From an uncultured Thermoplasmata archaeon (lineage in GTDB: Archaea; Thermoplasmatota; Thermoplasmata; Lutacidiplasmatales; UBA184), in contig CAVSTD010000008.1 of NCBI GenBank assembly GCA_963730815.1, positions 400,693 to 464,692 of the forward strand: a DNA stretch of 64,000 bases, in the 5' to 3' direction. Positions 3,804 to 43,904 of the stretch are shown piece by piece. Numbering within the stretch: the first letter of the stretch is position 1; each line of letters starts with the position of its first letter. Made by a program: the position numbers and the translations under genes. Below the pieces are notes generated by a model that made no database searches, was not told the DNA's origin, and saw only the letters and a program-made list of their open reading frames with translations.

Positions 3804-4934
3804 TCAGCGTTCTGCGGGCTCGCGGGAGTGCATGGTGACCTGACGGTCGGTTTTCGCGACGTTCTCGGGTTCGACGCTGCGGTTGATCGTGACCTCGTTG
3901 ATGATCACCAGCATTTCCAGCGCCATCAGTAGGTTCGAGACGACACGCTGGGCGGCCACCGCGAGTCGCCGGTCGGAGATATGGCGAGCGAGTGAGTCTC
4001 CCAGCTTGTAATCGGTCGGAAGGAGCCGGTCGATCTCGTTCAGGTTCGCGTTCGCGTCCACCACCGAAAGGCGGCCGAAGGCGTCCATCGTTCGTTCGAG
4101 GAGACTCTCGACTCGCTCGATCAGAGTGACCAGGCCGGTGACGGCCGGCTTCGGCAAGCGGTGGAGCCCGGGTAGGTTGTCGCCGATCTCGCGGCCCACG
4201 CCCGAGATCAGGTCTCCGGTGACCTCGAGGACCTTCGCGAGCAATCGGTATCCGATCTGGTAGTGGTGGCTCTCCACGCCGATGTCCCGCGCCACCTGGA
4301 AATCGTCCGACGAAAGCAGGAGCTGGCGGACCATCAGGAGATAGAATCGGTCGATCTCATCCTCCATGGGTCCGAGCTGTTGGAGGGCGGCGCGGTTCCC
4401 CCCGGTCAGGACCGATCGGCAGGTCTCGAGTTCGGAGCGCAGCATTCGAACTACTTGGCTCTGGAGGCGATGGAACTGGTAGCGACCCGGGTCGACGAAA
4501 TTCTGCACCTCGACCGCTCCCGACTCCTCCTCGACGACCGTCATCCCGAGGACGTGGGCGACGGTGCGCCGGACCTCCTGGCGTTGCTCGGAAGTGAGGC
4601 CCGAGCGAGACGTGACGATGATCTGGTCCTGACCGGTGATGTACGCCCCGATCAGGAGTCGGGCGAGAAGCTTGGGAGGAGCGCCGCTCGCGTCGATCCG
4701 CAGGAGCTTCTGACGACGGTCGGACGGGGTCTCGGCGTTCGCCGGGCTGATCTCGAGGCGCCCCCCGCCGAGGTCCCGGAATCGAAGGGTATCCCCCGTG
4801 TCGAGGTTCATCGAATCGGTCCAAGCCTTCGGGAGCGTGATCGAAAGGGACGAGGAGCCGGTCCGCTGGACTCGCCGTGTGAATCCGGGGGCAGCCGGAG
4901 TCTCCGGCGATTCCTTCCGAGCCCGCGGCATCAC
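3804..4934 (-). CDS. AbrB/SpoVT-domain + PhoU-domain regulator (archaeal 'phosphate uptake regulator' type)
   Basis: ORF 3804..4934. N-terminal swapped-hairpin-like RRVQRTGSSSLSITLPKAWTDSMNLDTGDTLRF, then PhoU-type helical repeats (EDEIDRFYLLMVRQL; NLNEIDRLLP..AVAAQRVVSNLLMALE). Confidence 0.8.
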   Translation of the reverse strand: MMPRARKESPETPAAPGFTRRVQRTGSSSLSITLPKAWTDSMNLDTGDTLRFRDLGGGRLEISPANAETPSDRRQKLLRIDASGAPPKLLARLLIGAYITGQDQIIVTSRSGLTSEQRQEVRRTVAHVLGMTVVEEESGAVEVQNFVDPGRYQFHRLQSQVVRMLRSELETCRSVLTGGNRAALQQLGPMEDEIDRFYLLMVRQLLLSSDDFQVARDIGVESHHYQIGYRLLAKVLEVTGDLISGVGREIGDNLPGLHRLPKPAVTGLVTLIERVESLLERTMDAFGRLSVVDANANLNEIDRLLPTDYKLGDSLARHISDRRLAVAAQRVVSNLLMALEMLVIINEVTINRSVEPENVAKTDRQVTMHSREPAER

Positions 4935-5221
4935 GACCGCATAATCTCGGGGTCATTAACGGTCTGCCCGACCACCTTCGTGCGCCCGGGACCCCCCCCG
5001 CCGGTCTCCTTACTCTCCTTACGGCCGTGACCGTACCCGCATCACCTTCGAGACCCTTCTCCCCTTCAGAGGCGTCACATGCGACCAGGACAAGGATTCC
5101 GAGTGTTCGACAGAGCCGACTGGCGACGAAAGGCACGGGTGCCCGATTTGGCCCAGCGTGCAGAGATCGAGAAGCGACCCTCGCAGGTCGCGGACCGAAA
5201 GACGCAGGGGAAGTGGTAACC

Positions 5222-7766: not shown

Positions 7767-7777
7767 TTTTTCTTTTT
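7767..7777 (+). terminator. oligo-T tract TTTTTCTTTTT (archaeal-type termination signal)
   Basis: Seen directly; the only long T-run in an otherwise GC-rich stretch, downstream of the VOC gene and the structured segment 7673-7759. Confidence 0.3.
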
Positions 7778-7804
7778 GATCTGTGATTTAATTCGGCAGG
7801 TGGG

Positions 7805-7846
7805 TTTTGTGACAGAGTTCGAACGGAACACTCAGCCGTCACAAAA
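7805..7846. promoter_or_regulatory. inverted repeat TTTTGTGAC-N24-GTCACAAAA with central GTTCGAAC palindrome; third half-site GTTGTGACAAG at 7855-7865
   Basis: Read directly from the sequence, in the 400-nt non-coding leader upstream of the surface-protein gene. Confidence 0.3.
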
Positions 7847-8042
7847 GTCGGCAAGTTGTGACAAGAATCGCAAGCGCCCGTTCACTCGGGTTGAAGAAGC
7901 ACCCATTTCCCAGGACCTGACGGCTCGGGACAGAATCTGCGACGGACGGTTCCGACTAACTCCCCAGCCTGGGATGCGCAAGATTTTGCAAACGTTCTTG
8001 CGCACTCGCTTATCCCCCGCCGATTCAGTACAGGTTCGAGGG

Positions 8043-10535
8043 ATGACTGTAATGACCATGACTTCACGACGGGGAGGCCGCACGTCTTGGCTCGAAGACC
8101 GCGTAACCCCGGCCCGGTCCTCATCCTGCGTGATACTAATCATTCTGGTCATGGTCCTAGGGATCGTCCCGACATCCCACAGGGTCGACGTCCCCACCTC
8201 AACGGTCAGCTCACAAGTCTCCGATGGTCCGGCCCTTCCCCAGTCCTCCACCAGCTCCCCGAGGGATTTCTCCCCGCTCGCGGGGGACTTACCAGCGTCA
8301 GAGTCGATATCTGTCGGCTACAGCCCCGGAGGTGCCGCCTTTGACTCCTCCACTGGATACGTCTACGTCACCGGGTCCAACATCTCGGTCATTGACGGAA
8401 CATCAGTCATTGCATCGATACCTGTCGGCGGGGTGGGAGCCGTATTTGATCCTGCGAATGGATATGTCTACGTTACCAATGATTCCACAATCCACCCGGC
8501 GGGAGAATGTCCGAACGGAAGTCCGGGCTGTGTCTTTGTGATCAGCGGAACTTCGATCGTCGCTTCGATACCTGTCGGCAGTTTCCCCAGAGGAGCCGCC
8601 TTTGATTCCGCCACCGAAGAGGTCTACGTTGCAAACGAGCGATCGGCCAACGTCTCGGTGATTAATGGGAGTTCGGTCGTCGCATCGATATCTCTCCCCC
8701 CTAACTCAGATCCAAATTCGGCCGCCTTCGATTCCTCCAACGGAAATGTCTACCTTACCGATCAATGTTCAGGTGGTTCGGAGTGCGTCTCGGTGATTCA
8801 TGGGACAGCGATTACCACATCGATACCCCTCGAAGGAGCGTCGGTAGCGACTTTTGACTCCGCGAATCAACGAGTCTACGTCGCGGGGACCAACGCAACG
8901 GGGGGCCACGTCTACGTGATTAGTGGAGCGTCGGTCGTCGCATCGATATCGCTACCGAATGTCGCTGCCGACAGCACGGCCGCAGGAATCGCGTTTGATT
9001 CCATCAATGGATACGTCTACTCCGCTTGGGGCGGGTATGGCTTGACATCGAGCGAGGAGGTTTCAGTAATCAATGGAACTTCCGTCATCGAATCGATATA
9101 CCCGTCATTTAACGGGGCGAATCTCTTGGGAGCGACATTCGATCCCGCAGCCGGACTGGTTGATGTCACGTACGATTATGTGGACTATCCATCCGGCTAT
9201 GTCTGGGTGATCAACGGGTCCAACTTCTACCCTACTATATCATCCTTCACCGCGAACCCCGACGTGGTGGAAATCGACTCGTCCTCGGCCTCGACCACCA
9301 TGTTCGAAGTAAACTCAACACGAGGTGAAGGGCCCTCGAACTTCACCTATGCCGACCTCCCCCCAGGCTGCGTCACCTCTAACACATCGAATCTAATGTG
9401 CACGCCGAATCGTCCCGGCGCTTACGCGGTCCACGTTCTTGTCACCGACAGCGCAGGGTATAGCGCGGAGGCCGCGACGATGCTGACCGTTGACGGCCCG
9501 ATAACGGCTTCCGCGACCGCGACCCCGAACCGAACCGACGCGGGCGTGTTGATGAGCTTCGCCTCGAACCCATCCGGTGGAATAGGCCCCGACACCTTCG
9601 CTTGGCTTTTCGGGGACGGGGGGTCTTCCGACGCTCAGAACCCCTTTCACGCGTACGGGACCCCCGGGAGTTACTCCGCACAAGTTTGGGTCAACGATTC
9701 GGCAGGAGTTTCGACCAAGAGCACAGTCTTGGTTTCGATCGATACGGCACTCCAAGTGGCGCTCTCCGTTTCGAACGCGACTCCTGTTCTCGGTCAATCG
9801 ATTGCGATCGACGTAAACGCCACGGGCGGCGTAGCCCCTTACACGTATGCTTACGTCGGTCTCCCTCCCGGATGCGTCTCGGTCAACGGCTCGACAATCG
9901 GTTGCTTCCCTACCCAGGCCGGATACTACAATCTGAGCGCAACAGTCACCGACCAAAACGGGGTATCGACCAACTCATCGACCCCTCTCGAGATCGTTTT
10001 CGAGTTCACCGTGGCGGTCCCCGCTCGAACCACGGTTAATCACGCATTCAGTCTTTCTGTCCACGTTTACGGAAGCGACGAGACACTCACGTACAACTAC
10101 GTCGGCCTGCCACCCGGATGCGCCTCCGTCGATGCTCCGCAGGTAGTCTGCACTCCCACCCGAGTGGGCAGTTACAACATCTCGATCTCAGTCCAAGATC
10201 TGGCCGGGCACCACGCCACCCATCAGGTGAGGGTGGAGGTTGTCAGCGGCGGATCTCAGTCGATTTGGTCGTTCCTGGAATCGCCCCTCCTCCTCGGAGG
10301 GCTGATAGCCGCCCTCGTGGCGATTGTGCTGGTCGCCGTCGTTCTGAACTCGGGTCGAAGGAGTTCAACCAGCCCCCGGTCAGACTTGTATTCAGCCTAC
10401 CGAGTCTCACCGAGAACGGCCTCTCCCTCGGGCCCAGATTCGCCCAGTCCGACGCAACGCGGGAGGCCAGTGATTCCACCAGGGTCACCAAGCTCGGAGG
10501 CGGCCGAGGAAGACTCCCTTTCTGATCTGGTCTGA
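8043..10535 (+). CDS. cell-surface protein: YVTN beta-propeller repeats + PKD/Ig-like domains + C-terminal TM anchor
   Basis: ORF 7776..10535. ATG 8043 precedes a signal-anchor (SSSCVILIILVMVLGIVPTS). Repeated AAFDSxxGxVYVT..SVIxG(T/S)SV(I/V)ASIP units; PKD motif FAWLFGDGGSSDAQNPFHAYGTPGSYSAQVWVNDSAGVS; three YVGLPPGC modules; TM LLLGGLIAALVAIVLVAVVL; Ser/Pro-rich acidic tail; many N-x-S/T sequons. Confidence 0.8.
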   Translation: MTVMTMTSRRGGRTSWLEDRVTPARSSSCVILIILVMVLGIVPTSHRVDVPTSTVSSQVSDGPALPQSSTSSPRDFSPLAGDLPASESISVGYSPGGAAFDSSTGYVYVTGSNISVIDGTSVIASIPVGGVGAVFDPANGYVYVTNDSTIHPAGECPNGSPGCVFVISGTSIVASIPVGSFPRGAAFDSATEEVYVANERSANVSVINGSSVVASISLPPNSDPNSAAFDSSNGNVYLTDQCSGGSECVSVIHGTAITTSIPLEGASVATFDSANQRVYVAGTNATGGHVYVISGASVVASISLPNVAADSTAAGIAFDSINGYVYSAWGGYGLTSSEEVSVINGTSVIESIYPSFNGANLLGATFDPAAGLVDVTYDYVDYPSGYVWVINGSNFYPTISSFTANPDVVEIDSSSASTTMFEVNSTRGEGPSNFTYADLPPGCVTSNTSNLMCTPNRPGAYAVHVLVTDSAGYSAEAATMLTVDGPITASATATPNRTDAGVLMSFASNPSGGIGPDTFAWLFGDGGSSDAQNPFHAYGTPGSYSAQVWVNDSAGVSTKSTVLVSIDTALQVALSVSNATPVLGQSIAIDVNATGGVAPYTYAYVGLPPGCVSVNGSTIGCFPTQAGYYNLSATVTDQNGVSTNSSTPLEIVFEFTVAVPARTTVNHAFSLSVHVYGSDETLTYNYVGLPPGCASVDAPQVVCTPTRVGSYNISISVQDLAGHHATHQVRVEVVSGGSQSIWSFLESPLLLGGLIAALVAIVLVAVVLNSGRRSSTSPRSDLYSAYRVSPRTASPSGPDSPSPTQRGRPVIPPGSPSSEAAEEDSLSDLV

Positions 10536-10607
10536 CTCCTGCTTCGAACTCCTTCTCGGAAGGCTAATCCAACCGCTCAAGCTAGAGGTCGCTAGTGGTC
10601 CTGCCCT

Positions 10608-11678
10608 TTGCGAGAGATTTCCCGTGCGGAGGCCATCGTCATTGCCGAGCTCTTGGCTGGCTCAGGAACCCCCCGCAACGTCTCCACTAACGATCGCGTT
10701 CCCCGGAGGACGCGGCAAGCCATTCACCAGAGACTTGTTGCTCGGGGTTCGATCAAGGAGCGCTATCTTCCCGATCCGGCGGTTCTGGGCCGGCCGATTG
10801 TTACCTTTGCCTTCGGCCACCCATATGCCGAGATGCAATCCCGCGCCCTCGCGACGTGGCGGTCGCATGAGGGAGGAGTCGACGTATGGGCCTTCAAGGA
10901 CGCCATGTTTGGGGTCTTCTTTCTAAGGGAATTGCAAGGCGTCTCCGCTCTGCACGAACTATTGGGTAATCCAACAGTCTGCCGAGACATATTCTTCCTT
11001 GATTGTGATTCGAGAGAACCCACTGTTCCCGTTTTCTTCGATTTTGAGGCGTCGTGGGCCCAGATCTCGGGCCTTAACAGCACTTTGGCCTACCCCCATT
11101 CCCTTCCGTCCGCAGTCCGGACCGGGGAAGGCCCGTCTGCAGGGCTTTCGAAAGCAGACCGTGAGGCGCTTCACTCTATGCTGACGCGCCAGCTTCCTTC
11201 CGGCCGGGTATCCGGCTCATCTGCATGGATGCATCGAATCGCCCAAGGGACACGGGAACGCCGCCTTGTGCGCGGTGGGGTGGGGGAGTTCCGGTCTTTC
11301 CTCGACCCGGCCGCTTGTTCACGTTGGGCCAGCAACTTCCCGGAAGCGCTCGCATTTGTTCGGGGAGTTCTTGTAGAGACGGCGACGGCTCCCGAACTAT
11401 TTCGTTTGCTCGTCACTGACTGCCGGGTTAACCCGTTTCTCTTCACGACCGACGGCAGGTCCGTGCTATTCGCTTGTCTGTCCAATCGAGTCGAGGACCG
11501 GGAGGAAATCTCCGTATCCCAACGGATCGCCCTACTCCCAACGGTTCAGAGGTTTCTCCGGCAAATCGTAGTTCTGCGGGAGCCGCTTGTCGATCTCGAC
11601 ACCTTAGTCGATCACCGTTACGATCGGCCGTTCTCCGAACTGCCCAAGAAAGAGGACTCCCGAGTCGAAACAGATTAG
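10608..11678 (+). CDS. hypothetical protein with two tandem HTH-plus-effector-like modules (putative regulator)
   Basis: ORF with a TTG start. Internal duplication: RLVARGSIKERYLPDPAVLG..IVTFAFGH in half 1 and RLVRGGVGEFRSFLDPAACS..ALAFVRGV in half 2. No catalytic motif. Confidence 0.55.
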   Translation: MREISRAEAIVIAELLAGSGTPRNVSTNDRVPRRTRQAIHQRLVARGSIKERYLPDPAVLGRPIVTFAFGHPYAEMQSRALATWRSHEGGVDVWAFKDAMFGVFFLRELQGVSALHELLGNPTVCRDIFFLDCDSREPTVPVFFDFEASWAQISGLNSTLAYPHSLPSAVRTGEGPSAGLSKADREALHSMLTRQLPSGRVSGSSAWMHRIAQGTRERRLVRGGVGEFRSFLDPAACSRWASNFPEALAFVRGVLVETATAPELFRLLVTDCRVNPFLFTTDGRSVLFACLSNRVEDREEISVSQRIALLPTVQRFLRQIVVLREPLVDLDTLVDHRYDRPFSELPKKEDSRVETD

Positions 11679-12160
11679 CAGACCCCGGTCCGTTCATCGA
11701 CAGAAGCGGCCCAGGCGACCGGGGCCCTCTGCGTTCAGTATTCGAATACAGTGGGGGTTCCAGCCGTTACTCTATCTAGCTCTGTGCGTCCGTCCAAGTA
11801 TCGAGCGATGAAAATCAATCCCGTTCGGAAACTGGACATCAATGATAATCTAGGAAGGGCGGGCTTAAGACGCGTAACAGAATAACAACAGCCCACAACC
11901 TTCTGGCTACTATCACCGTGCGGAAGGTGTCGTTCAATCCTTGACGTGTCGTTTAGTCGATTTGGCTGTCGTTTTATCCATCTCCAGTAAGAATCCGACC
12001 CTTCTTTGAGGCCGAGGAGGCGAAAAATCAGCATCTCGAATCCGGGTCCATAACCTCGGATGCCTCGGCTGCCAGATCGTCATGGTCTCCCCACCAAAGG
12101 CCCGGAAGCTATATCCGGTGCCTCCCCCTTAAGCGCGACAGGTCATCCGGGGGACCTTAG

Positions 12161-14269
12161 ATGCCTAGCCTCAGTGGTTCCGTAACGGCCGCGCAATCGA
12201 GTTCGATGTCCACTTTGACAACAGGCGCACTGACTTCAGTAGCCAAGGACGTGATCGTGATAGGCATCTCGATCCCAAGCGCAACTGTTACGGTCAGATC
12301 CATCACGGACAGTGCCGGCAATACTTACTCGAACAGGACTCGGACGCACGGGACCGGAATCTCCGGAGAAGTCTGGACCGCGCCGAGCCCGTCCGCCTCG
12401 ACCTCCAACACGATCACGATAACCCTCTCCTCCGCTACCAGCGGCTGGGCCGTTGCTGCAGGGTCATATTCTGGAGTCTCGGCGTTTGACGCGGCGGGTA
12501 CGGCTCAATCAGCTAATTCTAGCGCGGTGAGCGTAAGCGCTACGGCTTCCAACCCTGCGGTGATCATGATTGGACACGTTTTCACGACACCGGCGGTCAC
12601 GACCTCGGGCCTGACGAGCGGTTACCTCGACATCCCAGGCTCATCGACCAGCTACTTGGTTCACCAGAGTTACTTGCTCAGAGGCGTTACTGGGTCTAAC
12701 ACTTTTGCGGAGACACTCAGCGCAAGCCAGAATCACGTTGCCATCTTAATCGCGCTGGTCATTACCGAGTGGTCCTCGATAGCGGAGTCCGGTAAGCCTT
12801 TCGTGACAGTCTCCCCTGGCGGGATTGAGAATGGTTTGGCGACGATTCCGAACAACGGAGCCGACTTCGGACCGGACAGCACAGTCGGGGGTGTAATGAC
12901 TTCTACGAGCGGCATCCAGGAAGCGTTGAACTATGGTTACGTAAATGACGCGGCGGTCGTATTGCTAGAAGGGACATTCAACATAACTAGCCCTATCATG
13001 CTGGAGTCTTACGCAACCCTCACCGGTCAAGGTCGACAATCTGTCATCCAAGCCCTCGCCGGGTTCTCCTCAAGCGGTAGCCTCCTTTACTTCGACACGA
13101 CGAAGGGAGCGAACATAGACAACATCACGATTGCTCATCTCGCAATCATTGGGAACAATGGGGCGAGTTCCACGGGAATAACGGCAACAGCAGGGACGGG
13201 TTACGTCGTAGACTTCCTGCTGCTCGACGACATACTTATTGTTGGAGTGAACACCGGCCTAAACCTCACCGCCGTTAGAGGAAGCTCCATACGGTCCATT
13301 GTGATCACGAACCAGGAGAATACCCCTTTTTACGGAATCTACCTTCAGGATTGCGTTAACGTGAGTATCTCAGGTTGCTACATTCTAGCCTGCACCAAGG
13401 GACTCTGGTTCGATCGCTCTTCGACGACGGTTCAGAACCAAGGCATCATCACGTCCGGCTGCTGGATCTTAACTTGCGTAACTGACCTTACTATTCAAGA
13501 CGGCCTGGCACTGAAATTTTCTGATTGCATTTTTGACACTGCCACCTACCAGGATGGCATCGGCATCATCAGCGGAGGGACTGATATCGTATTCCACGGC
13601 TGCTGGTTTGCCTCCAACAACTCGGCCACGACTCAATTCTTCGCCATCAGCCCAGCAGATCCAGCTGCCTTTTTCACGTTACAGCAGATAGAATTTCTCG
13701 CCTGTTATTTTGTGAACATGCAGGCGGGTGTAAACATCTATTACGACAGTGCGAGCTTGCGACGACCCCAGTTCATCGTCTTTGACGCTTGCTCGTTCAA
13801 CACGAATACGGCCCCAGGCAACTACGATGTGGTGATCAACAACGCTGATCACGTTTACTTCACGGATTGCAACTGGCCGGATTCCACGGGGAGTGGGAAC
13901 CTAATCGAACTGCACGGTTCGGGGGGTGCTCCGCCGAGTGATATCGTAGTGAAAGGAGGCTACATGGCAAAGGGCTACTCGGGCCTCTCGCTCCTTGCGG
14001 GCACGATCCTTCTGTTCAAAGTAGCCAACGTGAACCCTGTCCCCGGATACAGCGTGACCGCTGGAGCCTCCATCTACACCTTCCCGCTTCTCCCATTCGA
14101 CGCGGTTTACGTGATGACCACGGTTGGCGGAATCAGCGCGTTGACACTCGATGGGCAGGGTCTAGGCAGCTCGTTTTTCCCTGGCCTGCAGGTGTTCGTT
14201 GGTGCGAACCACACTCTGACTGCCAAATGGGCTACAACCGCGCCGGTGTTCTCGATCCTCCCTCTATAG
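12161..14269 (+). CDS. right-handed parallel beta-helix (pectate-lyase/tailspike-like) protein, no signal peptide
   Basis: ORF 12161..14269. N-terminal Ser/Thr-rich beta-sandwich-like ~200 aa, then TSGIQEALNYGYVNDAAVVLLEGTFNITSPI (pectate_lyase_3-like entry) and repeated I/V-x-I-x-G/N-C coils (NITIAHLAIIGNN, VSISGCYILACT, DIVFHGCWFASNN, HVYFTDCNWPDS). Confidence 0.8.
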   Translation: MPSLSGSVTAAQSSSMSTLTTGALTSVAKDVIVIGISIPSATVTVRSITDSAGNTYSNRTRTHGTGISGEVWTAPSPSASTSNTITITLSSATSGWAVAAGSYSGVSAFDAAGTAQSANSSAVSVSATASNPAVIMIGHVFTTPAVTTSGLTSGYLDIPGSSTSYLVHQSYLLRGVTGSNTFAETLSASQNHVAILIALVITEWSSIAESGKPFVTVSPGGIENGLATIPNNGADFGPDSTVGGVMTSTSGIQEALNYGYVNDAAVVLLEGTFNITSPIMLESYATLTGQGRQSVIQALAGFSSSGSLLYFDTTKGANIDNITIAHLAIIGNNGASSTGITATAGTGYVVDFLLLDDILIVGVNTGLNLTAVRGSSIRSIVITNQENTPFYGIYLQDCVNVSISGCYILACTKGLWFDRSSTTVQNQGIITSGCWILTCVTDLTIQDGLALKFSDCIFDTATYQDGIGIISGGTDIVFHGCWFASNNSATTQFFAISPADPAAFFTLQQIEFLACYFVNMQAGVNIYYDSASLRRPQFIVFDACSFNTNTAPGNYDVVINNADHVYFTDCNWPDSTGSGNLIELHGSGGAPPSDIVVKGGYMAKGYSGLSLLAGTILLFKVANVNPVPGYSVTAGASIYTFPLLPFDAVYVMTTVGGISALTLDGQGLGSSFFPGLQVFVGANHTLTAKWATTAPVFSILPL

Positions 14270-14427
14270 GCGAGTCAGCTGATAGCACGATTCTCGCGAA
14301 TCTCTGATCGCTCGGGCTACCGTTCTCGAAGCAAACCTGAACAACCTTGGATTTCCAACGTACGTCAACCCTTTGCCGCAGCCTTCCCTCCGAGGGCGTG
14401 ACCGGAAGCGAGGACTGTGGAGTGAGC

Positions 14428-14628
14428 ATGGCCAGCCCGTCCTTTGATCGGGACGTCTTCATCACCGACGGAACGCAATTTCACCCTATCGACAGGGTCG
14501 TGGTCCGCTCCTCCGGGGTGTATGTCCTCGATCCAAACGCTCCGGACGCTGGGAAAATTTCTTACCATTCGACCGGAGCAATCAACCTGGGGCAACCAAA
14601 GTACGATCCCCCGGTACTCTATGGCTAG
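14428..14628 (+). CDS. small hypothetical protein
   Basis: ORF 14347..14628 with ATG at 14428 (MASPSFDRDVFITDGTQFHPIDRVVVRSSGVYVLDP...). No recognisable motif; inside the island. Confidence 0.3.
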   Translation: MASPSFDRDVFITDGTQFHPIDRVVVRSSGVYVLDPNAPDAGKISYHSTGAINLGQPKYDPPVLYG

Positions 14629-14890
14629 CTCGACGCGCCCGAACGTGGCCACGGTTACCAATACATTAGTCCCCGGGCACTCGTCACAAGGAGGCTCCGC
14701 CCTCTCCTCGATGAGTCAACCTCGAAGGGACCTTCCGACAGAAGGGCGGGACTAGTTGTCGACATCCGGGAGCAGCCACCAAACTCAGGGGTCCTTGAGA
14801 TCGACTTCGGTGTAAGATGCCCTGTCACCTGCCATCAAGCAATTGACTGCTCGTTTCCGTCCCGACGTTTCGCTAGAGACGAGACTACCC

Positions 14891-15127
14891 TCACGACGAG
14901 ATTGTTGGTGATCTCCGCTTCCTGGCTGCCGCCCCTTTCGTGAGAGATGGTGAGGCGCCCGAGCCCTTACGAACCATAGCTGATCGGCCTGTGACGTCCA
15001 CTTCCCAGGAAATCGAATCGCCGGGCTCAAGTCCTAGGACGGTCGCCACCGACTGCGGAACCGTCGTTTTCAGCGAGTCAGAGCCCGGGGACGCCTTGAA
15101 CGCCTTAGATTCGAAAGCCTTCGGCAT
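14891..15127 (-). CDS. AbrB/SpoVT-family DNA-binding protein
   Basis: LKTTVPQSVATVLGLEPGDSISWEVDVTGRSAMV is the looped-hinge/swapped-hairpin signature. Basic tail KGAAARKRRS. Confidence 0.7.
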   Translation of the reverse strand: MPKAFESKAFKASPGSDSLKTTVPQSVATVLGLEPGDSISWEVDVTGRSAMVRKGSGASPSLTKGAAARKRRSPTISS

Positions 15128-15222
15128 ACGACCTCCAGACCCGCCTAGACGCGCTCAGGGTCATATAAGTGGCCTATCAGGAGGGCGATGTATAGACCTC
15201 ATCCTTAAATACAACCGGGCGT

Positions 15223-15244
15223 ATAGGTCTATTTAGAGACCTAT
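15223..15244. promoter_or_regulatory. perfect inverted repeat ATAGGTCT-N6-AGACCTAT overlapping the transposase start codon; extra half-site TATAGACCT at 15191-15199
   Basis: Read directly. Lies in the 115-nt divergent region between the AbrB gene and the SWIM-DDE transposase gene. Confidence 0.4.
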
Positions 15245-16538
15245 GAATGGGACACGAGGGACCTGGAACGGGGAAACTGAAGCCAGGGCAATCAGGCTGC
15301 TCTCGACTAAGCGTGAGCGAGTGCGGGCGGAGGGTCGGCTCCGTTTCAGCGTTCGGTCCTCTGACGACTTGAGGAACTACGAAGTCGTCGCTGATGCCGA
15401 CGGTTGGAGCTGTGAATGCCCCGCGTGGCTCGATCGGAATACTCCCTGTAAGCACATCCTCGAGACAGTGATTTGGCTCGACCCCAATCCGCCTCCTATC
15501 TACGACGCGGCGGCCGAACCGACGAGGCCCACCTACACACAGCCTGACTGGGGAGCGTATGATCGAGGGCAGCAGCTCGAACATCAAGTGTTCGACCGCT
15601 ACCTTTGGGACTTAGTTGGCGGACTTCACGAAACGCCGTGGCCGAGGGCCAAGCGCGGTCGGCCGGTAATCCCGCTTCGGACTCAGGTGATGATGGCCGT
15701 GCGTAAGGTACACCTCAACCAATCGACCCGCCGCCCCCGGGGGCTACTGGTCGCCCTGAATCAGGACGGGAAGGGGCTTCTTAGTAGGGTCCCGAATTAC
15801 TCGGTCCCTTCCCGCTTTTTCAACCGGCCTCTGGCGACGGGGGTGCTTGTGGACCTGATCGAACGGAGTGGCCTCGTACTGAAGGACATCGAGGACGCAG
15901 GGACAGTCGCGATCGATTCTTCCGGATTCTCCACGTCGACGATGGGGGCGTACTTCACTGAAAAGTATGCCCCGGAGCGACGGCACGGATTCGTCAAGGC
16001 TCACCTCGCGGTGGGCGTCAAGTCGCACGTCGTCCTTTCTGTCAGGGTTACGGATGAGCATGGGGGGGACTCGCCGGAATTCATCCCGCTCCTCCGTCGG
16101 CTCACCGAAATCGGGCATTCCCCCGACCGAGTCACGGCCGACAAGGCCTACCTGAGTCACGGGAATCTCGCTGCGGCCGATGCACTAGGGATCGACCCCT
16201 ACGTCCCGTTCAAGGTCAATTCGCGTGGCCTGGCAAGGTGTTCGCCTATGTGGAACCGAAAGTATCACGAATTCCAGCTCAGACGAGACGAGTTCGACTC
16301 GGCCTACCACCAGCGAAGCAACGTCGAGTCCACATTCTCAGCGATTAAGCGGAAACTCGGTGAACCTTTGCTCTCAAAGAGCACGTTCGCACGGCTCAAC
16401 GAACTCCTGGCGAAGATTCTCGCTTACAACGTCGGTGTAGTGATCAGCCAGGCTCATCTTCACGGCCTCGAGCCGAGCCCGACGAGCTTCATTCCTAGGT
16501 CCCCCGCACTGACGCACCTGGGGGAGGCGGCCTGGTGA
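15243..16538 (+). CDS. SWIM zinc-finger + DDE (IS4/IS5-like) transposase
   Basis: SWIM motif WSCECPAWLDRNTPCKHILE. DDE candidates AIDSSGF, VTADKAYLS and YHQRSNVESTFSAIKRKLG (the Y-x-x-R-x-x-x-E block typical of DDE_Tnp_1). Confidence 0.85.
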   Translation: MNGTRGTWNGETEARAIRLLSTKRERVRAEGRLRFSVRSSDDLRNYEVVADADGWSCECPAWLDRNTPCKHILETVIWLDPNPPPIYDAAAEPTRPTYTQPDWGAYDRGQQLEHQVFDRYLWDLVGGLHETPWPRAKRGRPVIPLRTQVMMAVRKVHLNQSTRRPRGLLVALNQDGKGLLSRVPNYSVPSRFFNRPLATGVLVDLIERSGLVLKDIEDAGTVAIDSSGFSTSTMGAYFTEKYAPERRHGFVKAHLAVGVKSHVVLSVRVTDEHGGDSPEFIPLLRRLTEIGHSPDRVTADKAYLSHGNLAAADALGIDPYVPFKVNSRGLARCSPMWNRKYHEFQLRRDEFDSAYHQRSNVESTFSAIKRKLGEPLLSKSTFARLNELLAKILAYNVGVVISQAHLHGLEPSPTSFIPRSPALTHLGEAAW

Positions 16539-36425: not shown

Positions 36426-36433
36426 TATTTATA
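36426..36433 (+). promoter_or_regulatory. TATA box TATTTATA upstream of aglB
   Basis: GGCTATTTATACACC lies ~50 nt upstream of ATG 36480; strongest AT-rich element in the intergenic region. Confidence 0.45.
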
Positions 36434-36479
36434 CACCCCCTAGGTCTCGCGCGCCGCCGGCTCGGAGAGCCGGTCGCGC

Positions 36480-39400
36480 ATGGAATCGACATCTTCCGGA
36501 TGGTGGCACCGTCACGGCTGGACGGTGGCGATTCTTCTCTCCGCGTTCGGGATCTCCTTCGCGCTCCGGACCATCTGGGCCTATCCGGTCGTTTCCCAGT
36601 GGGGACCGCTCTTCACCTACGCCGGCGGCTCGGACTCCTACTACCACTCCCGGGTGATGCAGTACATCATCCTCAACCATACGAATTTGATCCACGACCC
36701 GCTCCTCCAGTTCCCGGTCGGAGCGATCAACCCCCGAGAGCCGCTGTTCGACTGGATGAACGCGATCCTCGGGATCATCTTCGCCCCGTTCTTCGGCGGG
36801 AACGCCGTCGTGGCGGGCGCCTGGTTCCTGGACCTGCAGGCCCCGCTCTGGGCCGCGCTCGGCGTCTTCCCGGTCTACCTGATCGGCCGAGAGGTCTCGG
36901 GCCGACGGACGGGGCTCATCGCGGCGGTCATCTTCCCGTTCCTGAGCGGGAACATCGACTCCTCGATCTTCGGGTATGCGAACTATCTTTCGTTTTACAC
37001 TTTCATCATCCTCGTTGTCGTCTATTCGTACATCCGTACCGTCAAGGCGGTCGGAAGTCGACGTTGGGTCGAAGATTACCGCCACCCCCGACAGTACATC
37101 CCCGCGGTCCGCGCGTTCGTCCGTACGGAACGCAGCGCGGTGAAATGGGCCGTCTTCACGGGCGTCTCTCTCGGAACGCTCGCGCTGGCCTGGCAAGGGT
37201 ACACCTACGGCGTGGTCGTGATCGCGATCTCCCTCGTCGTCGCGATGGTGGTGGAGCGGATCCGCCGGGTGGACTCGTTCGGACTCTACGTCGCGACCTG
37301 GATCGTCGGGCTGGTCGGATTCCCGATGGCGATGCCCTACTACCTCGTCCAGCAGCAGTTCGCCGTATGGTTCGACCTTCCGCTGTTGATCTTCTTCGGC
37401 GCACTCGCCCTGCTGCTCCCGTTCCTCTTGATGCGGGACATCCCCTGGGTGTTCTCGGTCCCGTTCCTCGTGGCGGTTTTCGCCGCGGGCGTGGGCGCGC
37501 TCGCCATCGTGAGTCCCACCTACTTCACGTCCCTCGTCACCGGGCAGGGATACTTTGTCAAGAACCTGATCTATTCGACCGTCGCCGAGGCCCAGGCTCC
37601 CTCGATCGACCAGTTGGTCCTCGGCTACGGCGTCGTGACGTTCTTCCTCGCGTTCGCCGGGCTCGCCATCTTCGTCTACCTCCTCGTCCAGGGTCGCTTC
37701 AAACGACACCACGTCGTGTTCCTCGTCTTCTCCCTCCTCTCGCTCTACCTTCCGATATCCGCCGCGAAGTTCTTCCTCGTCGGCTCGCCGATCTTCGCAC
37801 TGCTACCGGCCGAGGCGATACGTCGGGCGCTCGACGTCGCCGGGTACGGGGAGCTGCGAAGAACCACGGCGTCCCTCTCCGACCGGAGAAGCCAGTTCTC
37901 CGCCTTCCGCAAGGCGTTCAAGCCGCGCCACGTCCTCGTGATGGCGCTCGTCCTCATCGTCGTGCTCCCCAACGTGTGGGTCGCGATCGACGCGGGCATT
38001 CCGGGCAACACCAAATCCGAGTACGCGGCCCAGGTTGGGGCCACTTTGCCGCCCTGGCTCCAGCTCAATACGTCCAACCCGTCGAACTATTACTTCGGGG
38101 CCGCGGGGACCTCCCTCGACACTCCGAACCAGTACGATAGCGCCGGGTACAATTGGCTCGCCCAGCAGGACACGAACGTTCCGGCCCCGCAGCGTCCGGC
38201 CTTTGTCAGTTGGTGGGATTACGGATTCCAGGCGATCGCCCAGGGAGCCCACCCGAGCGTCGCCGACAACTTCCAGAACGGGATCGACCCCGCGGGACAG
38301 TTCCTCCTCTCCCAGAATGAATCGCAGGCGATCGGCGTGCTCGCCACCACGCTCCTCGCCGCCGAGCAGCGCGCATCGGGGTTGCCCGACCTCCCGCCCG
38401 CCCTCAACCAGATCCTCGCTGCCGACGGGCTCAACACGAATCAGCTCCATAACCTGCTCGTCAACACGGGCTCGGACTACAACCTCGTGGTCGCCCACCC
38501 CGAGCGGTATCTCCCCGTCGACGCGAGCACGATCACCCCGGTGAATGCGATGTATCTCGCGATGGCCTACTTCCTCGCGACCTCTCTGCCCCTCAACGGG
38601 GTCGCGAAGGTCTACAACGACATCCAGTCGTACACGGGCTGGTCGATCCGCTATACGATGACCGACACGCGGCTCTTCCCGTTCAGCGGCACCGACACCG
38701 GCATTTTCTACGCTCCGGCGGAGCTCACCGGACGGGTCATCGATTCGACCGGCGCGCCCTCTACGTTCTTCAATCTGAGCGTGCTCGGGTCCGACGGCAA
38801 CTACTACTCGCCCAACCATCTGCCCGCGGGGGTCACCCAGGTCGGCTCGCCGGTCGTCAACTACTTCGCCCCGTTCTATAACTCGATGATCTACCGAACG
38901 TACATCGGGTACAACGGGACGGACATCGGTTCGAGTCCCGGCATCCCGGGCCTCTCCTCCTCCCTCGCGAACGCGACGATCGAGCCGGGCTGGATGCTCC
39001 AGCATTTCCAGGTCGTCTACAAGACCGCGTACCTCTGCTCGCTGCCCAATGACGGCGGAAACTGCATCGCGGACAACGAACCGGCCGCGGTCGCCGGCGC
39101 CGCCCGCATCAACGGCTCCGCCGACACGACCGCCTTCACCTACTTCAGCGGGGGCGAGTCGATGCTCGAGTACTATCCCGGCGAGACCCTCCTCGGGGAC
39201 GTCCAGCTCCCGGACGGCTCGCCCGTCGGCGGCGCGCGGGTGACGGTCTACGATGGCTGGGGGATCCCGCATCAGACCGTCCTGACCGCCCCGGACGGCA
39301 CCTTCTCGCTCGTCCTGCCTCCCGGCAACGACACCGTGAACGTCACCATGGGGACGTTCGACGGGCTGACGCAGGCCGGCGGCACCCTCCTGAGCTCCGC

Positions 39401-42400
39401 GAAGATCGTCGTCCCGAACGCGGTCGGCCTCAGCTACAACGCCCCAAATCTGGTCCAGACGTTCACAGTAGGCGGCGGCTCCATCCAGGGCTTCGTCTTC
39501 TGGCAGTTCGGGACCAACTCCTCGGTACTCGCCTCCCGCGGATACGCTCGTCTCGGGCGCCCAGGTGGTTTTCAGCGGAACGAACCTGACCCAGCACACG
39601 GCGACGACGGATGCCAGCGGTTCGTTCAACCTGACCAACGTGGCGCCGGGGGTCTACAGCTACCATGTCCTCTACGGCGGGCAGAATTACACCGAGAGCA
39701 GCATCACCGTCAATCCCGGCAAGAGCTCGAACGCGACCGCCGGGCTCGCGGCGGCGACCGTCCTCGGAACGGTGAGCACCTCGAGCGGACACCCACTCCC
39801 CGGAGCGACCGTGTTCCTCGGGGGACCGAGCGGAACGCTCGCATCGACCACTTCGGGTGCCACGGGCGACTACCGGCTCGGCAGTGTCGGAGCGGGCAAC
39901 TATACGCTCCTCGCCGCGGTGGCCGGGTCGGACCTTCGCTCGGCCGGTGTGCCCATCACGCTCACCGCGGGGAATCTCAACGTGAGCGAGAACCTCACCG
40001 TCCGCCCGACGGGAAGCGCCACCTTCGTACTGACCGCGGGCGATGCCGCCGCCGCGAACATCCCTGTCCGGTTCACGCCGATCGCGACCTACTCCAACAG
40101 CTCGGTCTCCCCTCTTGCCTCGCTCGGGAATGCCTCCCGAAATTCCACCGTCCTTCTGAGTTCGGGCTCCGGGGCCGCCGCCGCCGCCCTCCCGCCCGGG
40201 AACTACTCGGTGTACGCTTCCGGGGTCATCAACGGCGTTCAGTACGTCGGTCTCGGCGAGGCCCTCGTCACCGCCGGGTCCGCGTCGACCTCCCTACTCG
40301 CCCTCGCTCCGGCGCTCCGGCTCTCGGGCAACGTGGCGGCCGTGGGCCCGCAGACGAACCAGACCCAAACGGCGGTGATCGCGTACGCGCCGAATGGGGA
40401 CGAGGTCGTGACGTGGGCCACCGGAGGGGCCTATTCATTCTCGCTGCCCGCCGGCAATTACGGCGTGCTGGCTCTGGAGGGGCCGAAGAACGAGGCGAAC
40501 TCGGTTTGGACCGCGCTCGCCGGGGTCACTCTCTCGACCGCGACGACTCTGCCGATCGACCCGGTGGCGGCCGCGAGGGTCGCTTTCACGGTCGGGGCGC
40601 CGCTGGCGGGCGGGACCCTCTTCCCCGCGGGCGGGGCGACGGTGTTCGTCAGCGAGGGCACCAGTGGGCCCTCGATACCGGTGACCTCGAGCGGCAACGG
40701 CTCGGTCGCGCTGTACGTGCCGACCACGCTGCCCCTCACGGCGAGTTCGTACTGCGTGCGCGCGAGCGCCCTCGGGTTCGCCTCGACGACCATGTGCGGC
40801 CTCTCTCCGAGCGCGCTCGCCGCGCTGACCCAGCTCGTGACATCCCTCGACCCGGTCCCCGTGACGATCACCGTCCTCGGGCTCCCGTCAGGGAGCTCCG
40901 TTCAGGTCAACCTTACCGCGGTGAGCTCAACGGCTGTCAACCAGACGCTTTCGGGCGGACCGGATTTCTCGTTGAATGTGGCACCCGGTCTTTACACGAT
41001 CGCGGCCCGGGCCGTGGTCGGAGGGACGGTCATCTACCTTCCTCCGGGTCCATTCTCCACGGCGATCCCGCTCGGGACCACCAGCTACGACGTGACGCTT
41101 CTCATGATTCCACAGGTGAACTCTACGGGGACGCTGACGGTTCCAAGCGGCGTGCCGCTCGGGAACGTCAATGTCTCGCTCTCCTCGCCGGGGCTCAATG
41201 TGACCGTGAACGGCAGCACGTTCGAGAGCGGTTTCTTCGCCGCTCCCGGGACGTATTCGGCCTACGCGACCGCCACGGCGGGCGGCACCACCTACGCGAG
41301 CCTCTCCCGGGTGACCATCGCTTCGAGCGGAGCGGTCTCTCCGGCGATCGTGCTTTCCGGCGCCGGGCCTCGGCTGACGGGGACGCTGGTGAACGCTTCC
41401 GGCGCGACCGTCCCCCTCAACGCGACCGCGTTCGTGGTTGCCCCCGGCGGGGCGGTCGCTGTCGCGAATTCGGTCGACGGCATCTTCTCTCTGCCGCTCA
41501 ACTCCGGGACGACCTATGCGGTCTTCGTCAACGGCACGACCGTGACGCCGGGACCGAACGGCAGCTTCGTTCAGTCCTGGAGCGCCGCCGCGGGGGCCAG
41601 CTGTTCGCTCGGGGCCGTGAACACGTCGTGTGATGTACCCTTGGTAGGGGTCCCCCGGTTCGTGTACCTCAATGGGACCCTGGTCGCGTCGGGCGTCCCG
41701 GGGACCGTGCCCGGCACGTTGCGGTTGGTGGGTCCGTACCCGTCGACCAACGTGACCGTAGTGACCACGGCCACCGGGTCGTTCTCGGCTTCCCTGCTCC
41801 CGGGCGCGTATTCCCTCTATGCGACGGGCGGAGGGTCGGTCGAACCGCTCGCGAACCTTACGAGCATTCTGGCTCTTCGATCGAGTTCCAGCCCGCTTTC
41901 CGTCTCGCTCTCGCCGACCTGGGTCGACACGATCTCCGTCGTTCCCCCGGGCGGCCCCGGTGGGGGCATCGGCCCGGTCACGGTAACTATCACCGACGCG
42001 CTCGGGACCCGGACGCTGTATTCCGGTCAGTCCCCGAGCTCCCCGCTCCTGCTCGCCCTCCCCGCGGGGACCTACCTTATCCGGGCGACGGCGGCCGGTT
42101 CCTACGGCGGAGTTCCTTCGAACGCCTCCGCGCAGTCGACGGTCACGATCCTCAACGGCAACGTGGGCACGGTCCTTCCGCTGACGTACGTCACGACCAC
42201 GGCCGTCGCGGGGAACCTAATTGGTCCTACGTCGACGACCGTCCAAGCCGGAGGGACCGCGACGTTCTCGTTCTCGCTGCGCAATTCCGGCAACGTCCCG
42301 GTGACCGTCCACCCGGTCGGTACGCCGGCCTACTGGACGTTCGACTTCAACTTCGGTAACGTCACGCTCCTTCCGGGCCCGAGCGGCACGGTGGTCGCCG

Positions 42401-43074
42401 GCGAAGTCCGAGTGCTGATTCCGGCCGGGACCGATGTCGCCCACCCCGGGGTGACGGTCGAGTTTGAGAACGCCACCGGCACGATCTTCGGGTCGGTGAG
42501 TCCGGCGCCCACCATCAACGTTGTCGGGTACTACGGGCTCCTCGCCGGGTATTCGCCCCTTCCGGGCCAGGTGACCGCATCGGTCGCGATTCTTCCGTTC
42601 TACATCGTGAACACGGGCAACGTCGGCGAGACCGTCGTCGCCACCGTCACGGACTCGGCGCAGCTCTCGGGGCTCGGCTGGGCAAGCGGATTCCAGTTGG
42701 GGGCGGGCGGGGCCGCGACCCCGTCGCTTCAGACGTACCTCTCGACCGGTGGCAACACCACCGTCTACCTGAATCTGACCGCGACCTCCTCCATCTTCAT
42801 CACGCCGCGGTCGGCGACCGTCTCGCTCTCCGTCCTCAATGCATCGGGGAGCGTCTCCGAGACCCTGACGTTGAACGTGCCGGTCGTCTCGGTCAGCGCG
42901 GGCACCGGTCCTGGCTCCCCGCCCGTTACGGTCACCGGCCCCTCGGTCGGTCCGCAACCGAATGCCCCGCTGGTTTGGCTCGTGCCACTCCTCTCGTTTG
43001 TTCCGGCGATCGCCCTCGTCGTCGGCGTGGTCACGTATCGATGGTGGCGCACCCGGAGGTGGACGCGGCGATGA
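36480..43074 (+). CDS. aglB: giant oligosaccharyltransferase AglB/STT3 fused to an Ig-like/carboxypeptidase-regulatory repeat array and C-terminal TM anchor (one frame break at ~39535-39541)
   Basis: ORF 36480..41633 carries multi-TM STT3 with SWWDYGFQ (WWDYG). From ~39541 the coherent reading continues in ORF 39565..43074 (..NSSVLAS|ADTLVSGAQVVFSGTNLTQHTATTDASGSFNL..). The frame-1 tail after that point is Arg/Gly-rich noise. Confidence 0.85.
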
Positions 43075-43904
43075 ACCGCCGACGTAACGCTATTGCCGTC
43101 CTCGGTCTCGTGCTGCTGCTCGCGGCCCCGACGTTCCTCATCGCGGTCTCGGCCGTCGCGCCGAGCGCGCGGGCGGCGACGACCGAGGCCGTGACCGGTT
43201 CGGTCAGCGGACCCGGCATCGTCGCCACCGGCTCCACCACCCTCTTCTACGTGTACGGGTGGGGCGGCCCGGCCGTGGCGTTCAACGCCACCGTGGTCGG
43301 GACGATCAAGTATTACTCTGCGCTCTCGGGCTCCAACCTCACCGGGGTCTCGTTCACGCCGGCGACGGGGAATATCACCTCGAACCAGTCGGTCCTGGTG
43401 GACCTCGCCGTCGGGAACGCCACGGAGACGATCACGATCAGCGTGATGATCTCCTCCCTCAACTCGAACGCGAGCGAGAATCAGTCGACGAACGTCTCCA
43501 CGACGGTCCACATCGTCCAACCGTATGTGATCTCGGCGACGATCGTGAACTCCTCGGCCACGACGGTCAGCGCGTTCGTCGTGTACGTGACCCTGGACGG
43601 CTCGATGGTCGGACGAGTGAACGTCACGAGCCTCGCCGCCGGTAAGTCGTTCCAACTGGTCTACCAGTACGCGACTTTAGGTCTCTCGAGCGGCGAGCAT
43701 ACGTTCGGGATCTCGCTCGCCCAGGAGCACGGGCTCGTCACGTTCCCGAACGGTCAGACGCAGTACACCGTGAACGTGTACGTCAACGGACCCGCTCCGG
43801 ACTACACGCTGTGGTATGTCGCCGGAATCGTGACGTTCTTCGGCGTCCTCTTTATATTCGCATCCCGGGTGGCCGCGCGCCGGCGAGGCGCGGCGCGTCG
43901 TTGA
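43071..43904 (+). CDS. secreted, C-terminally anchored sequon-rich protein
   Basis: ATG 43071 overlaps the aglB stop (ATGA). Signal peptide MNRRRNAIAVLGLVLLLAAPTFLIAVSAVAPSARA, ~10 N-x-S/T sequons, C-terminal TM WYVAGIVTFFGVLFIFA plus RRRGAARR. Confidence 0.7.
   Translation: MNRRRNAIAVLGLVLLLAAPTFLIAVSAVAPSARAATTEAVTGSVSGPGIVATGSTTLFYVYGWGGPAVAFNATVVGTIKYYSALSGSNLTGVSFTPATGNITSNQSVLVDLAVGNATETITISVMISSLNSNASENQSTNVSTTVHIVQPYVISATIVNSSATTVSAFVVYVTLDGSMVGRVNVTSLAAGKSFQLVYQYATLGLSSGEHTFGISLAQEHGLVTFPNGQTQYTVNVYVNGPAPDYTLWYVAGIVTFFGVLFIFASRVAARRRGAARR

Follow-up and report, generated by a model that had tools for sequence, protein, structure and literature searches.

A giant AglB oligosaccharyltransferase with an Ig-like domain array and a second membrane anchor in an uncultured Thermoplasmata archaeon and its relatives

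To our knowledge, AglB is the sole universal enzyme of archaeal N-glycosylation. Its STT3 part has the N-terminus inside the cell, 13 membrane-spanning helices and a C-terminal domain on the external side. Characterised AglBs have from one to a few peripheral beta units and end there. Among the A. fulgidus paralogues the longest, AglB-L (AfAglB-L), has 868 amino acids (aa; PMC8342417). Here we describe an AglB gene at positions 36480-43074 of the forward (+) strand in a window of 64,000 nucleotides (nt), i.e., the whole stretch of DNA analysed, from an uncultured Thermoplasmata archaeon (GenBank assembly GCA_963730815.1, contig CAVSTD010000008.1, positions 400,693 to 464,692). The gene encodes one protein of 2,197 aa once a single frame break is repaired, and by the measure of AfAglB-L the characterised enzymes are therefore less than half its length.

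With AfAglB-L (PDB 3WAJ, 3WAK, 5GMY and 7E9S) the window protein shares the 13-helix STT3 fold and, after it, the external catalytic domain, the aspartate of external loop 1 (EL1; D52 here, D47 there), a TIXE-type glutamate (E370 here) and the WWDYG motif, whereas at EL2 it has N-Y-L in place of the D-x-H of AfAglB-L. Compared with characterised AglBs it adds about 1,300 aa of immunoglobulin-like (Ig-like) domains, a second transmembrane (TM) helix and a conserved cytoplasmic tail. The predicted layout is thus a 13-helix STT3 domain, an external domain bearing WWDYG, some 13 Ig domains, a flexible linker, the second TM helix and an 11-residue tail of Trp and Arg character.

Described proteins of other kinds resemble this extension. 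Archaeal surface-layer-type (S-layer-type) glycoproteins with a C-terminal anchor share its Ig arrays, its enrichment in N-x-S/T and the terminal TM helix with basic residues, but their signal peptide is cleavable and they lack an enzyme domain, whereas the window protein would be anchored at both ends. NOMO1/2, in the BOS complex of the multipass translocon of the endoplasmic reticulum (PDB 9C7V), likewise consists of a chain of about 1,200 aa of transthyretin/CarboxypepD_reg-like beta-sandwiches with one terminal TM helix and a short cytosolic tail, lying on the non-cytoplasmic side of a glycosylating membrane. NOMO is, however, a separate polypeptide and is not joined to STT3.

The fused gene across relatives

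The fusion of AglB with an Ig-like array is natural and is carried by a continuous single gene. One genome per GTDB species was scanned (450 relatives), and in 63 of the 73 best loci looked at an uninterrupted open reading frame (ORF) of 2,050-2,230 aa begins at the AglB start and ends with a C-terminal TM helix and basic tail. In the nearest relative (L003, i.e., DATEQS010000036.1, which aligns with the window over 19 kb at 87% nt identity) the orthologue is intact at 2,198 aa, and the full-length proteins P0042-P0046 measure 2,186-2,217 aa at 54-74% identity. These dozens of uninterrupted orthologues establish continuity over the position at which the window gene is broken. They also uphold the central claim of the original prediction, made from the letters of the window, that STT3/AglB is fused in one polypeptide with a sequon-rich Ig-like array that has its own C-terminal anchor. 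Close relatives keep the synteny, and the window copy differs from them by a 1-nt insertion. Between the window and L003 the ratio of nonsynonymous to synonymous substitution rates (dN/dS) is 0.05 in the membrane domain, 0.08 in the catalytic domain, 0.17 in the extension after the break and 0.09 in the anchor; the low value after the break shows that the downstream frame is kept as protein-coding.

The giant form is widespread. When residues 1-880 were compared exhaustively by phmmer with 1.84 billion cluster representatives (clusters at 50% identity), about 90 of the best 150 were proteins of 1,900-2,775 aa with the same layout. All of these giant relatives carry WWDYG at about residues 570-820, a terminal TM helix is found in about 88 of 92, and an internal TM segment after WWDYG is predicted only in P0043, P0045, P0099 and P0120. 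A word-indexed search from a Methanomassiliicoccales seed returned 555 proteins at E<=1e-20, nearly all of 2,100-2,230 aa, including the RefSeq protein of the cultured Methanomassiliicoccus luminyensis (2,173 aa) and one entry from a metagenome-assembled genome (MAG) already named AglB. The M. luminyensis protein (P0309), QLH74806.1 (P0055, 2,175 aa) and the L003 orthologue share the architecture of the window protein, with WWDYG at about 570-600, an extension of about 1,200-1,300 aa, as is usual for giant AglBs, and a C-terminal TM helix with a basic tail. The form spans Lutacidiplasmatales-like soil lineages, DHVE2 and Methanomassiliicoccales (some of which are gut-associated), and its length and the order and number of its domains are constant down to 30% identity. 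Unlike the window protein, distant giant clades have DHD at the EL2 motif and generic basic tails instead of RWWRTRRWTRR.

The giant AglB is the standard form in this archaeal class, and the window gene is one ordinary representative of a large family already present in public sequence data, probably miscalled owing to an assembly indel. The rarity implied by the original prediction falls away with so many of the best cluster representatives and Methanomassiliicoccales-seeded matches sharing the form, and the survey of long AglB homologues finds the fusion to be common in the clade. Database names of giant AglBs are generic or misleading (GT39, peptide transporter, carboxypeptidase regulatory-like). 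No description of a giant AglB was found in the literature searchable as full text (reviews and Thermoplasmata genome papers); most subscription papers lie outside this body of text, so the form may be noted elsewhere. Within that same literature, the statement that no AglB with this architecture has been described stands unrefuted. The giant AglB appears to be a clade-wide, unremarked variant of a known AglB kind and not a unique oddity.

A separate set of AglB relatives of about 1,100-1,200 aa (P0163, P0168, P0173, P0174, P0176, P0183 and P0186) starts with Met and ends without a TM helix. It may represent a genuine intermediate form of another lineage, with the enzyme and a few Ig domains but no second anchor.

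The one-base break

As given, the region reads as two long overlapping + strand ORFs in different frames, 36480-41633 and 39565-43074. Frame 0, from the ATG at 36480, yields a multi-spanning membrane protein with SWWDYGFQ that is plausible as AglB as far as ...FWQFGTNSS; past FGTNSS it turns Arg/Gly/Pro-rich, of the off-frame type for DNA of 66% GC, and meets no stop before 41633. The second frame, +1, is stop-free between 39472 and 43072-43074, where it terminates, and holds beta-type sequence rich in Ser, Thr, Gly and Val, with LVWLVPLLSFVPAIALVVGVVTYRWWRTRRWTRR at its end. The GC content of third codon positions (GC3) is 0.91-0.96 in frame 0 up to about 39480 and 0.82-0.89 in frame +1 from about 39660, with a gapless switch at about 39540, so the coding register moves by one base within a continuous coding sequence. 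Antisense ORFs at 36429-37712, 37803-39638, 40458-40871 and 42217-42957 were taken to be shadows of the high GC content, since the strong GC3 periodicity tracks the two + strand AglB frames and the + frame is stop-free.

The break is placed as follows:

39524..39525 (+): frame break, an extra G (GG where relatives have G), located by blastn against L003, orthologue proteins and GC3

In the nucleotide alignment with L003 the extra G lies in CCTCGGTAC, and removal of either G gives the ORF of 2,197 aa, which agrees with the repaired length of about 2,198 aa proposed originally. The correct junction joins ...GTNSS, read in frame 0, to YSPPADTLVSGAQ, read in frame +1. The orthologues P0027, P0028, P0029 and P0034 read NSS-YSPPADTLVPGAQ across this position, and over the break site P0027 (82% identical) has ...NSSYSPPADTLVPGAQ..., P0028 has NTTYSPPTDTVVPGAQ and P0029 has STGYSPSVDTLLSGAQ. 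Orthologues and the L003 alignment thereby correct the earlier placement of the break at about 39535-39541, which was 12-15 nt too far downstream, and the earlier junction, in which NSSVLAS was joined to ADTL where NSS should be joined to YSPPADTL.

Only two uncompensated coding indels occur in the 19-kb L003 alignment, this one and another at about 35508 in a thiolase gene (34594 onward, +). There a base is missing relative to L003 beside CCCCCCGGGG, a C6/G4 run; frame 1 of this neighbouring gene runs out in nonsense at 35574, and the C-terminus typical of thiolases, ...NPRGGLLGCGHPLGATG..., is read in frame 0. That two conserved genes only 4 kb from each other each have a single-base indel suggests consensus errors of the assembly, and the insertion in AglB is most likely an assembly or sequencing indel, or else a very recent mutation. 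Outside the AglB gene, noise defeated a GC3 frame scan of the whole window for more frameshifts, and the L003 alignment took its place.

We consider it very unlikely that the frameshift is real here, leaving either a pseudogene or two products, i.e., an AglB with some 700 aa of Arg-rich nonsense appended, up to the stop at 41633, and a separate surface protein from the GTG at 39565. The sequence as given is frameshifted, and interrupted orthologues are also found in the public assemblies L001, L002, L015, L029, L033, L044, L050 and L053, some of them split by up to 4-5 frameshifts (MFD/ERZ contigs; L001 7264-13843, L002 7357-13929) and with gene-caller fragments named only 'CarboxypepD_reg' or 'STT3'. 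However, the break positions differ among these relatives, and at least in the L001 and L002 assemblies the aconitase and isocitrate dehydrogenase genes are fragmented too. The window break falls within an Ig domain, and a product from GTG 39565 would begin mid-domain and without a signal peptide, for which reasons a separate downstream gene was rejected. The intact state of most species representatives, the second indel in an essential-looking thiolase gene and the low dN/dS of the post-break frame all speak against a real frameshift as well. We give next to no credence to programmed +1 ribosomal frameshifting or transcriptional slippage at the GG as a means of joining the frames in vivo. The frames do overlap stop-free for about 50 nt (39472-39525), where a shift at any point would yield the full-length product, but the site has neither a slippery heptamer nor a long homopolymer. 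Because L003 and every intact orthologue read through it in frame, it holds no conserved recoding signal, and this explanation was rejected. We are thus confident that this is a single AglB gene in its class-standard giant form, with a native product of 2,197 aa and a break that is most likely an indel.

Enzyme, array, anchor and neighbouring genes

The gene divides into the following features:

36480..37994 (+): AglB membrane domain, aa 1-505, the STT3 N-terminal multi-helix part (Pfam, profile, AlphaFold2 (AF2)/Foldseek)
37995..39119 (+): AglB extracytoplasmic catalytic domain, aa 506-880 (translation, Pfam AglB_core-like, profile matches)
39186..39380 (+): first Ig-like domain (CarboxypepD_reg), aa 903-967 (PF13620 E 5e-10, 40 bits; AF2 strands)
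39477..39744 (+): second Ig-like domain, aa ~1000-1088, with the frame break inside (Pfam, orthologue continuity)
39757..39972 (+): third Ig-like domain (CarboxypepD_reg), aa 1093-1164 (PF13620 E 3e-23 / 1.9e-22)
39973..42177 (+): further all-beta Ig-like domains, about eight, sequon-rich, aa ~1165-1899 (AF2 pLDDT mostly 80-92)
42178..42888 (+): two membrane-proximal Ig-like domains, aa ~1900-2136 (AF2 strands, family consensus)
42889..42978 (+): linker with conserved TVTGPSVG, probably disordered (AF2 pLDDT <50, model residues 1117-1149)
42979..43038 (+): C-terminal TM helix LVWLVPLLSFVPAIALVVGVVTY (hydropathy; AF2 helix, model residues 1147-1171)
43039..43074 (+): cytoplasmic tail RWWRTRRWTRR, aa 2187-2197, with the stop TGA at 43072-43074 (clade alignment)

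The AglB fold and most of the catalytic motifs are present in the first ~880 aa, where an ordinary multi-TM AglB/STT3 with SWWDYGFQ had been recognised, and Pfam, profile, AF2/Foldseek and motif evidence agree on this. Pfam STT3 (PF02516) matches aa 47-495 with 28.6 bits against a cut-off of 24.5, and the family profile matches AfAglB-L (3waj) at E 7.7e-30, positions 6-501 onto 4-488. As a single sequence the catalytic part gave a weak match only in the PDB search, and the family profile was needed; there is a Pfam AglB_core-like match at aa 574-621 and profile matches to the AglB C-terminal domains 3vu0 and 3vgp. In the AF2 model of residues 1-1015 (pLDDT 81.2, pTM 0.75) the membrane domain is helical, and the top Foldseek match is AfAglB-L 7e9s (E 5.5e-23, TMt 0.68), followed by human and yeast STT3 and then by PglB. 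SWWDYGFQ lies at aa 577-584, and the WWDYG within it (aa 578-582, nt 38211-38225) is invariant in 36/36 clade members as in the giant relatives. D52, in the EL1 motif GGSDSYYH, is also invariant, and so across the family are T367 and E370 of the EL5 TIXE-type motif STVAEAQ. The second acidic motif, at EL2, departs from this pattern: YANYL (aa 166-170, nt 36975-36989) has N168 and L170 where AfAglB has D161 and H163, and position 168 is N in 31/36 and D in 5/36 members of the clade. Because the substitution is conservative and clade-wide and the protein is under strong constraint, N168 reads as a variant site rather than as decay.

The array begins at about residue 890 and is estimated to hold some 13 all-beta Ig-like domains. 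The AF2 model of residues 1021-2197 (pLDDT 81.7) has strands throughout, a low-confidence linker and one terminal helix, and so supplies the structural check on the extension that had been proposed. Against a CarboxypepD_reg cut-off of 32.3 bits, the first domain (aa 903-967) scores 40 and the two after the break 82 in total; the remaining ten or so reach a sub-threshold 16-19 bits yet are all-beta in the model. The earlier description of carboxypeptidase-regulatory/Ig-like repeats is thus borne out for an all-beta array, but only the first three domains are recognisable as CarboxypepD_reg. The second domain reads GSIQGFVFW...NSS in frame 0 and YSPPADTLVSGAQVVFSG...TTDASGSFNL in frame +1, with Pfam matches of the fn3_3/SdrD_B/EMC7 beta-sandwich type and to CarboxypepD_reg, and the best Pfam stretch of the third corresponds to residues 73-144 of a protein starting at 39541. 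The last two domains, with N[ST]GN motifs in RNSGNVPVTV... and VNTGNVGETV... (family consensus VxNTGN...W..F, twice), resemble the CARDB/NPCBM_assoc type, although the window protein gives no significant match to it. NPCBM_assoc/FixG_C/HYDIN-like Ig matches do occur at the corresponding place in the M. luminyensis orthologue, which also has eight CarboxypepD_reg stretches.

A Foldseek search with the extension returned generic multi-Ig proteins only and no enzymatic or lectin fold. No DNA-level tandem repeat was found in the AglB gene, and a recent tandem duplication of repeat DNA was rejected; the domain repeats are old and diverged. Within the clade, mean identity in the first Ig domain (63%) is close to that of the catalytic domain (65%), and the array beyond it is at 37-45%.

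Sequons (N-x-S/T) are strongly enriched in the extension. Residues 881-2140 contain 36, against 13.9 +/- 3.2 in composition-preserving shuffles, and none of 5,000 shuffles reached 36; the earlier manual count of about 33 was right as to enrichment and slightly low. The extension has 2.9 sequons per 100 aa, compared with 2.1-3.4 in other surface proteins of the window and 0-0.5 in cytosolic enzymes; the PKD protein (7776-10535) and the small anchored product of the gene directly downstream of AglB are enriched to a similar degree. A density no different from that of other surface proteins is the mark of an exposed glycoprotein and not a peculiarity of the AglB gene. The heavily glycosylatable stalk proposed originally is accordingly sequon-rich, but this is not a special property of it, as surface proteins of the window are equally dense.

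At the C-terminus, a terminal TM helix followed by an Arg-rich stop-transfer had been predicted, and both are seen: hydropathy (Kyte-Doolittle) peaks at 2.43 over aa 2167-2185, where AF2 also models a helix, and the tail RWWRTRRWTRR follows. This tail, RWW(R/K)TRRW(T/V)RR among 35 soil-clade orthologues, is the most conserved segment of the protein, with a mean identity of 87% compared with 70% in the membrane domain, 65% in the catalytic domain and 55% in the anchor helix. When the window and 82 loci were translated in all six frames, the motif appeared nowhere but at the end of this protein, and RWWxTRRW was therefore rejected as a general sorting signal. The C-terminus, ...GPQPNAPLVWLVPLLSFVPAIALVVGVVTYRWWRTRRWTRR, lacks a PGF tripeptide before the helix, and so has no PGF-CTERM/archaeosortase-type signal.

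Two features adjoin the gene:

36426..36436 (+): TATA-box-like ctatttataca, a candidate archaeal promoter (read from the sequence)
43071..43904 (+): gene for a protein of about 277 aa, overlapping the AglB stop (ATGA; translation)

The candidate promoter is about 45-55 nt 5' of the AglB ATG, inside a 160-nt gap after a ChsH2-like gene. The downstream protein has a signal peptide, a C-terminal TM helix with an Arg-rich tail, and 10 sequons where 3.2 +/- 1.5 are expected; it has no Pfam match, and an orthologous 276-aa gene occupies the same place in L002 (13938-14768). To judge from the overlap, it is probably co-transcribed and translationally coupled with AglB. Gene order is kept in L001 and L002. 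It comprises, on the 5' side, genes for pyruvate:ferredoxin oxidoreductase, a homocitrate/isopropylmalate synthase-like protein, aconitase, isocitrate/isopropylmalate dehydrogenase, thiolase and a ChsH2-like protein, then the giant AglB, the small anchored protein, aS21, EF-1beta and YdjM. The window itself belongs to a high-GC Thermoplasmata archaeon of soil, Lutacidiplasmatales-like in kind. The close relatives are all Thermoplasmata MAGs from soils and peat, including Candidatus Lutacidiplasma silvani; the order Lutacidiplasmatales consists of high-GC (~69%) soil archaea (PMC9287336).

Elsewhere in the window, a stretch of lower GC (0.55-0.59 vs ~0.66; 1295-2401 and 7776-16538) holds the sequon-rich PKD-domain protein of 919 aa (7776-10535) and a beta-helix protein (12161-14269). 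Its bounds are two transposases, of the IS110 family (1295-2401) and of the DDE_Tnp_1 type (15243-16538), and it looks like a mobile or variable surface-protein island. A 382-aa ORF at 3804-4952 (-) has an N-terminal MazE/AbrB-type antitoxin-like domain (aa 29-73). Rfam found no RNA family anywhere in the window.

Possible roles of the array and their meaning

With the N-terminus of STT3 inside, an odd number of helices and a tail that obeys the positive-inside pattern, both ends of the protein should be membrane-anchored and the array should lie outside. From its fold and motifs, the N-terminal part of about 880 aa would transfer dolichol-linked glycans onto Asn-x-Ser/Thr of exported proteins. 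On this topology the Ig array would stand outside the cell as an arch or loop, about 50 nm in contour, that may itself be N-glycosylated, and the conserved tail could dock to the membrane or to a cytoplasmic partner. M. luminyensis has no prominent cell-wall-like structure (Borrel et al., PMC4153887). Taken with the topology and the glycosylation potential, this leads us to suggest, tentatively, that the arch is a built-in envelope or glycocalyx strut that holds the enzyme in the surface coat of largely wall-less archaea.

Several points weigh against this picture of an intact, active enzyme with a structural arch. The frameshift may be genuine in this strain, and post-translational cleavage may separate the enzyme from the array. 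Enzymes are usually far scarcer than coat proteins, which counts against a bulk structural role. Full catalytic competence is assumed here, with N168 standing for the second catalytic Asp, and neither a D-x-x-K nor an M-x-x-I motif (the DK/MI motif of the Ser/Thr pocket) could be aligned in the window protein, in which an invariant N689-A-M-Y about 110 aa beyond WWDYG may stand in for it.

As the main, though unlikely, functional alternative to the envelope strut, the array and C-terminal helix may be a cis-encoded accessory module that captures or presents unfolded substrates, or that couples the enzyme to the translocon or to a cytoplasmic partner, by analogy with the ribophorins and OST48 of the eukaryotic oligosaccharyltransferase (OST) or with NOMO of the BOS complex. 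The best match of the extension among solved structures is human NOMO2 (9c7v_B; E 3.5e-20 with profile A2, 9.7e-29 with A1), which likewise strings transthyretin-like domains together ahead of a C-terminal anchor, and NOMO-specific Pfam models match orthologues. The conservation of the first Ig domain, similar to that of the catalytic domain, and of the tail suggests specific interactions, and the constancy of length and domain number down to 30% identity points the same way. Yet the similarity to NOMO is not collinear: the five HMMER stretches all use profile positions ~411-638 against different NOMO domains, and the NOMO_5th, NOMO1-like_9th and NOMO_3rd models match CarboxypepD_reg residues of the M. 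luminyensis orthologue out of order. Since all of these matches fall on the same 2-3 CarboxypepD_reg domains, the resemblance is at the level of the domain or clan, and NOMO was rejected as an architectural relative. The middle of the array evolves fast, as exposed surface domains would, and no partner was identified. Decidedly unlikely, though far-reaching, is a version in which array, second helix and tail make up a cis-encoded holo-enzyme module, or in which the enzyme doubles as the principal envelope glycoprotein of S-layer-poor lineages. As a holo-enzyme, the protein would hold a glycosylated cage or arch above the catalytic site, pack its own helix on the STT3 bundle and touch a cytoplasmic partner with its tail. 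If this were true, one Thermoplasmata polypeptide would correspond to eukaryotic STT3 plus single-anchor beta-sandwich subunits, e.g., ribophorins/OST48 and NOMO-type scaffolds.

Whatever the role of the array, recognising the giant form corrects the annotation of a gene that gene callers and assemblies often split. The cultured M. luminyensis offers an organism in which to ask what an Ig arch does for an oligosaccharyltransferase, and the soil clade adds two specific oddities that can be put to the test, i.e., the Asn that replaces the second catalytic Asp and the ultra-conserved Trp/Arg cytoplasmic tail.

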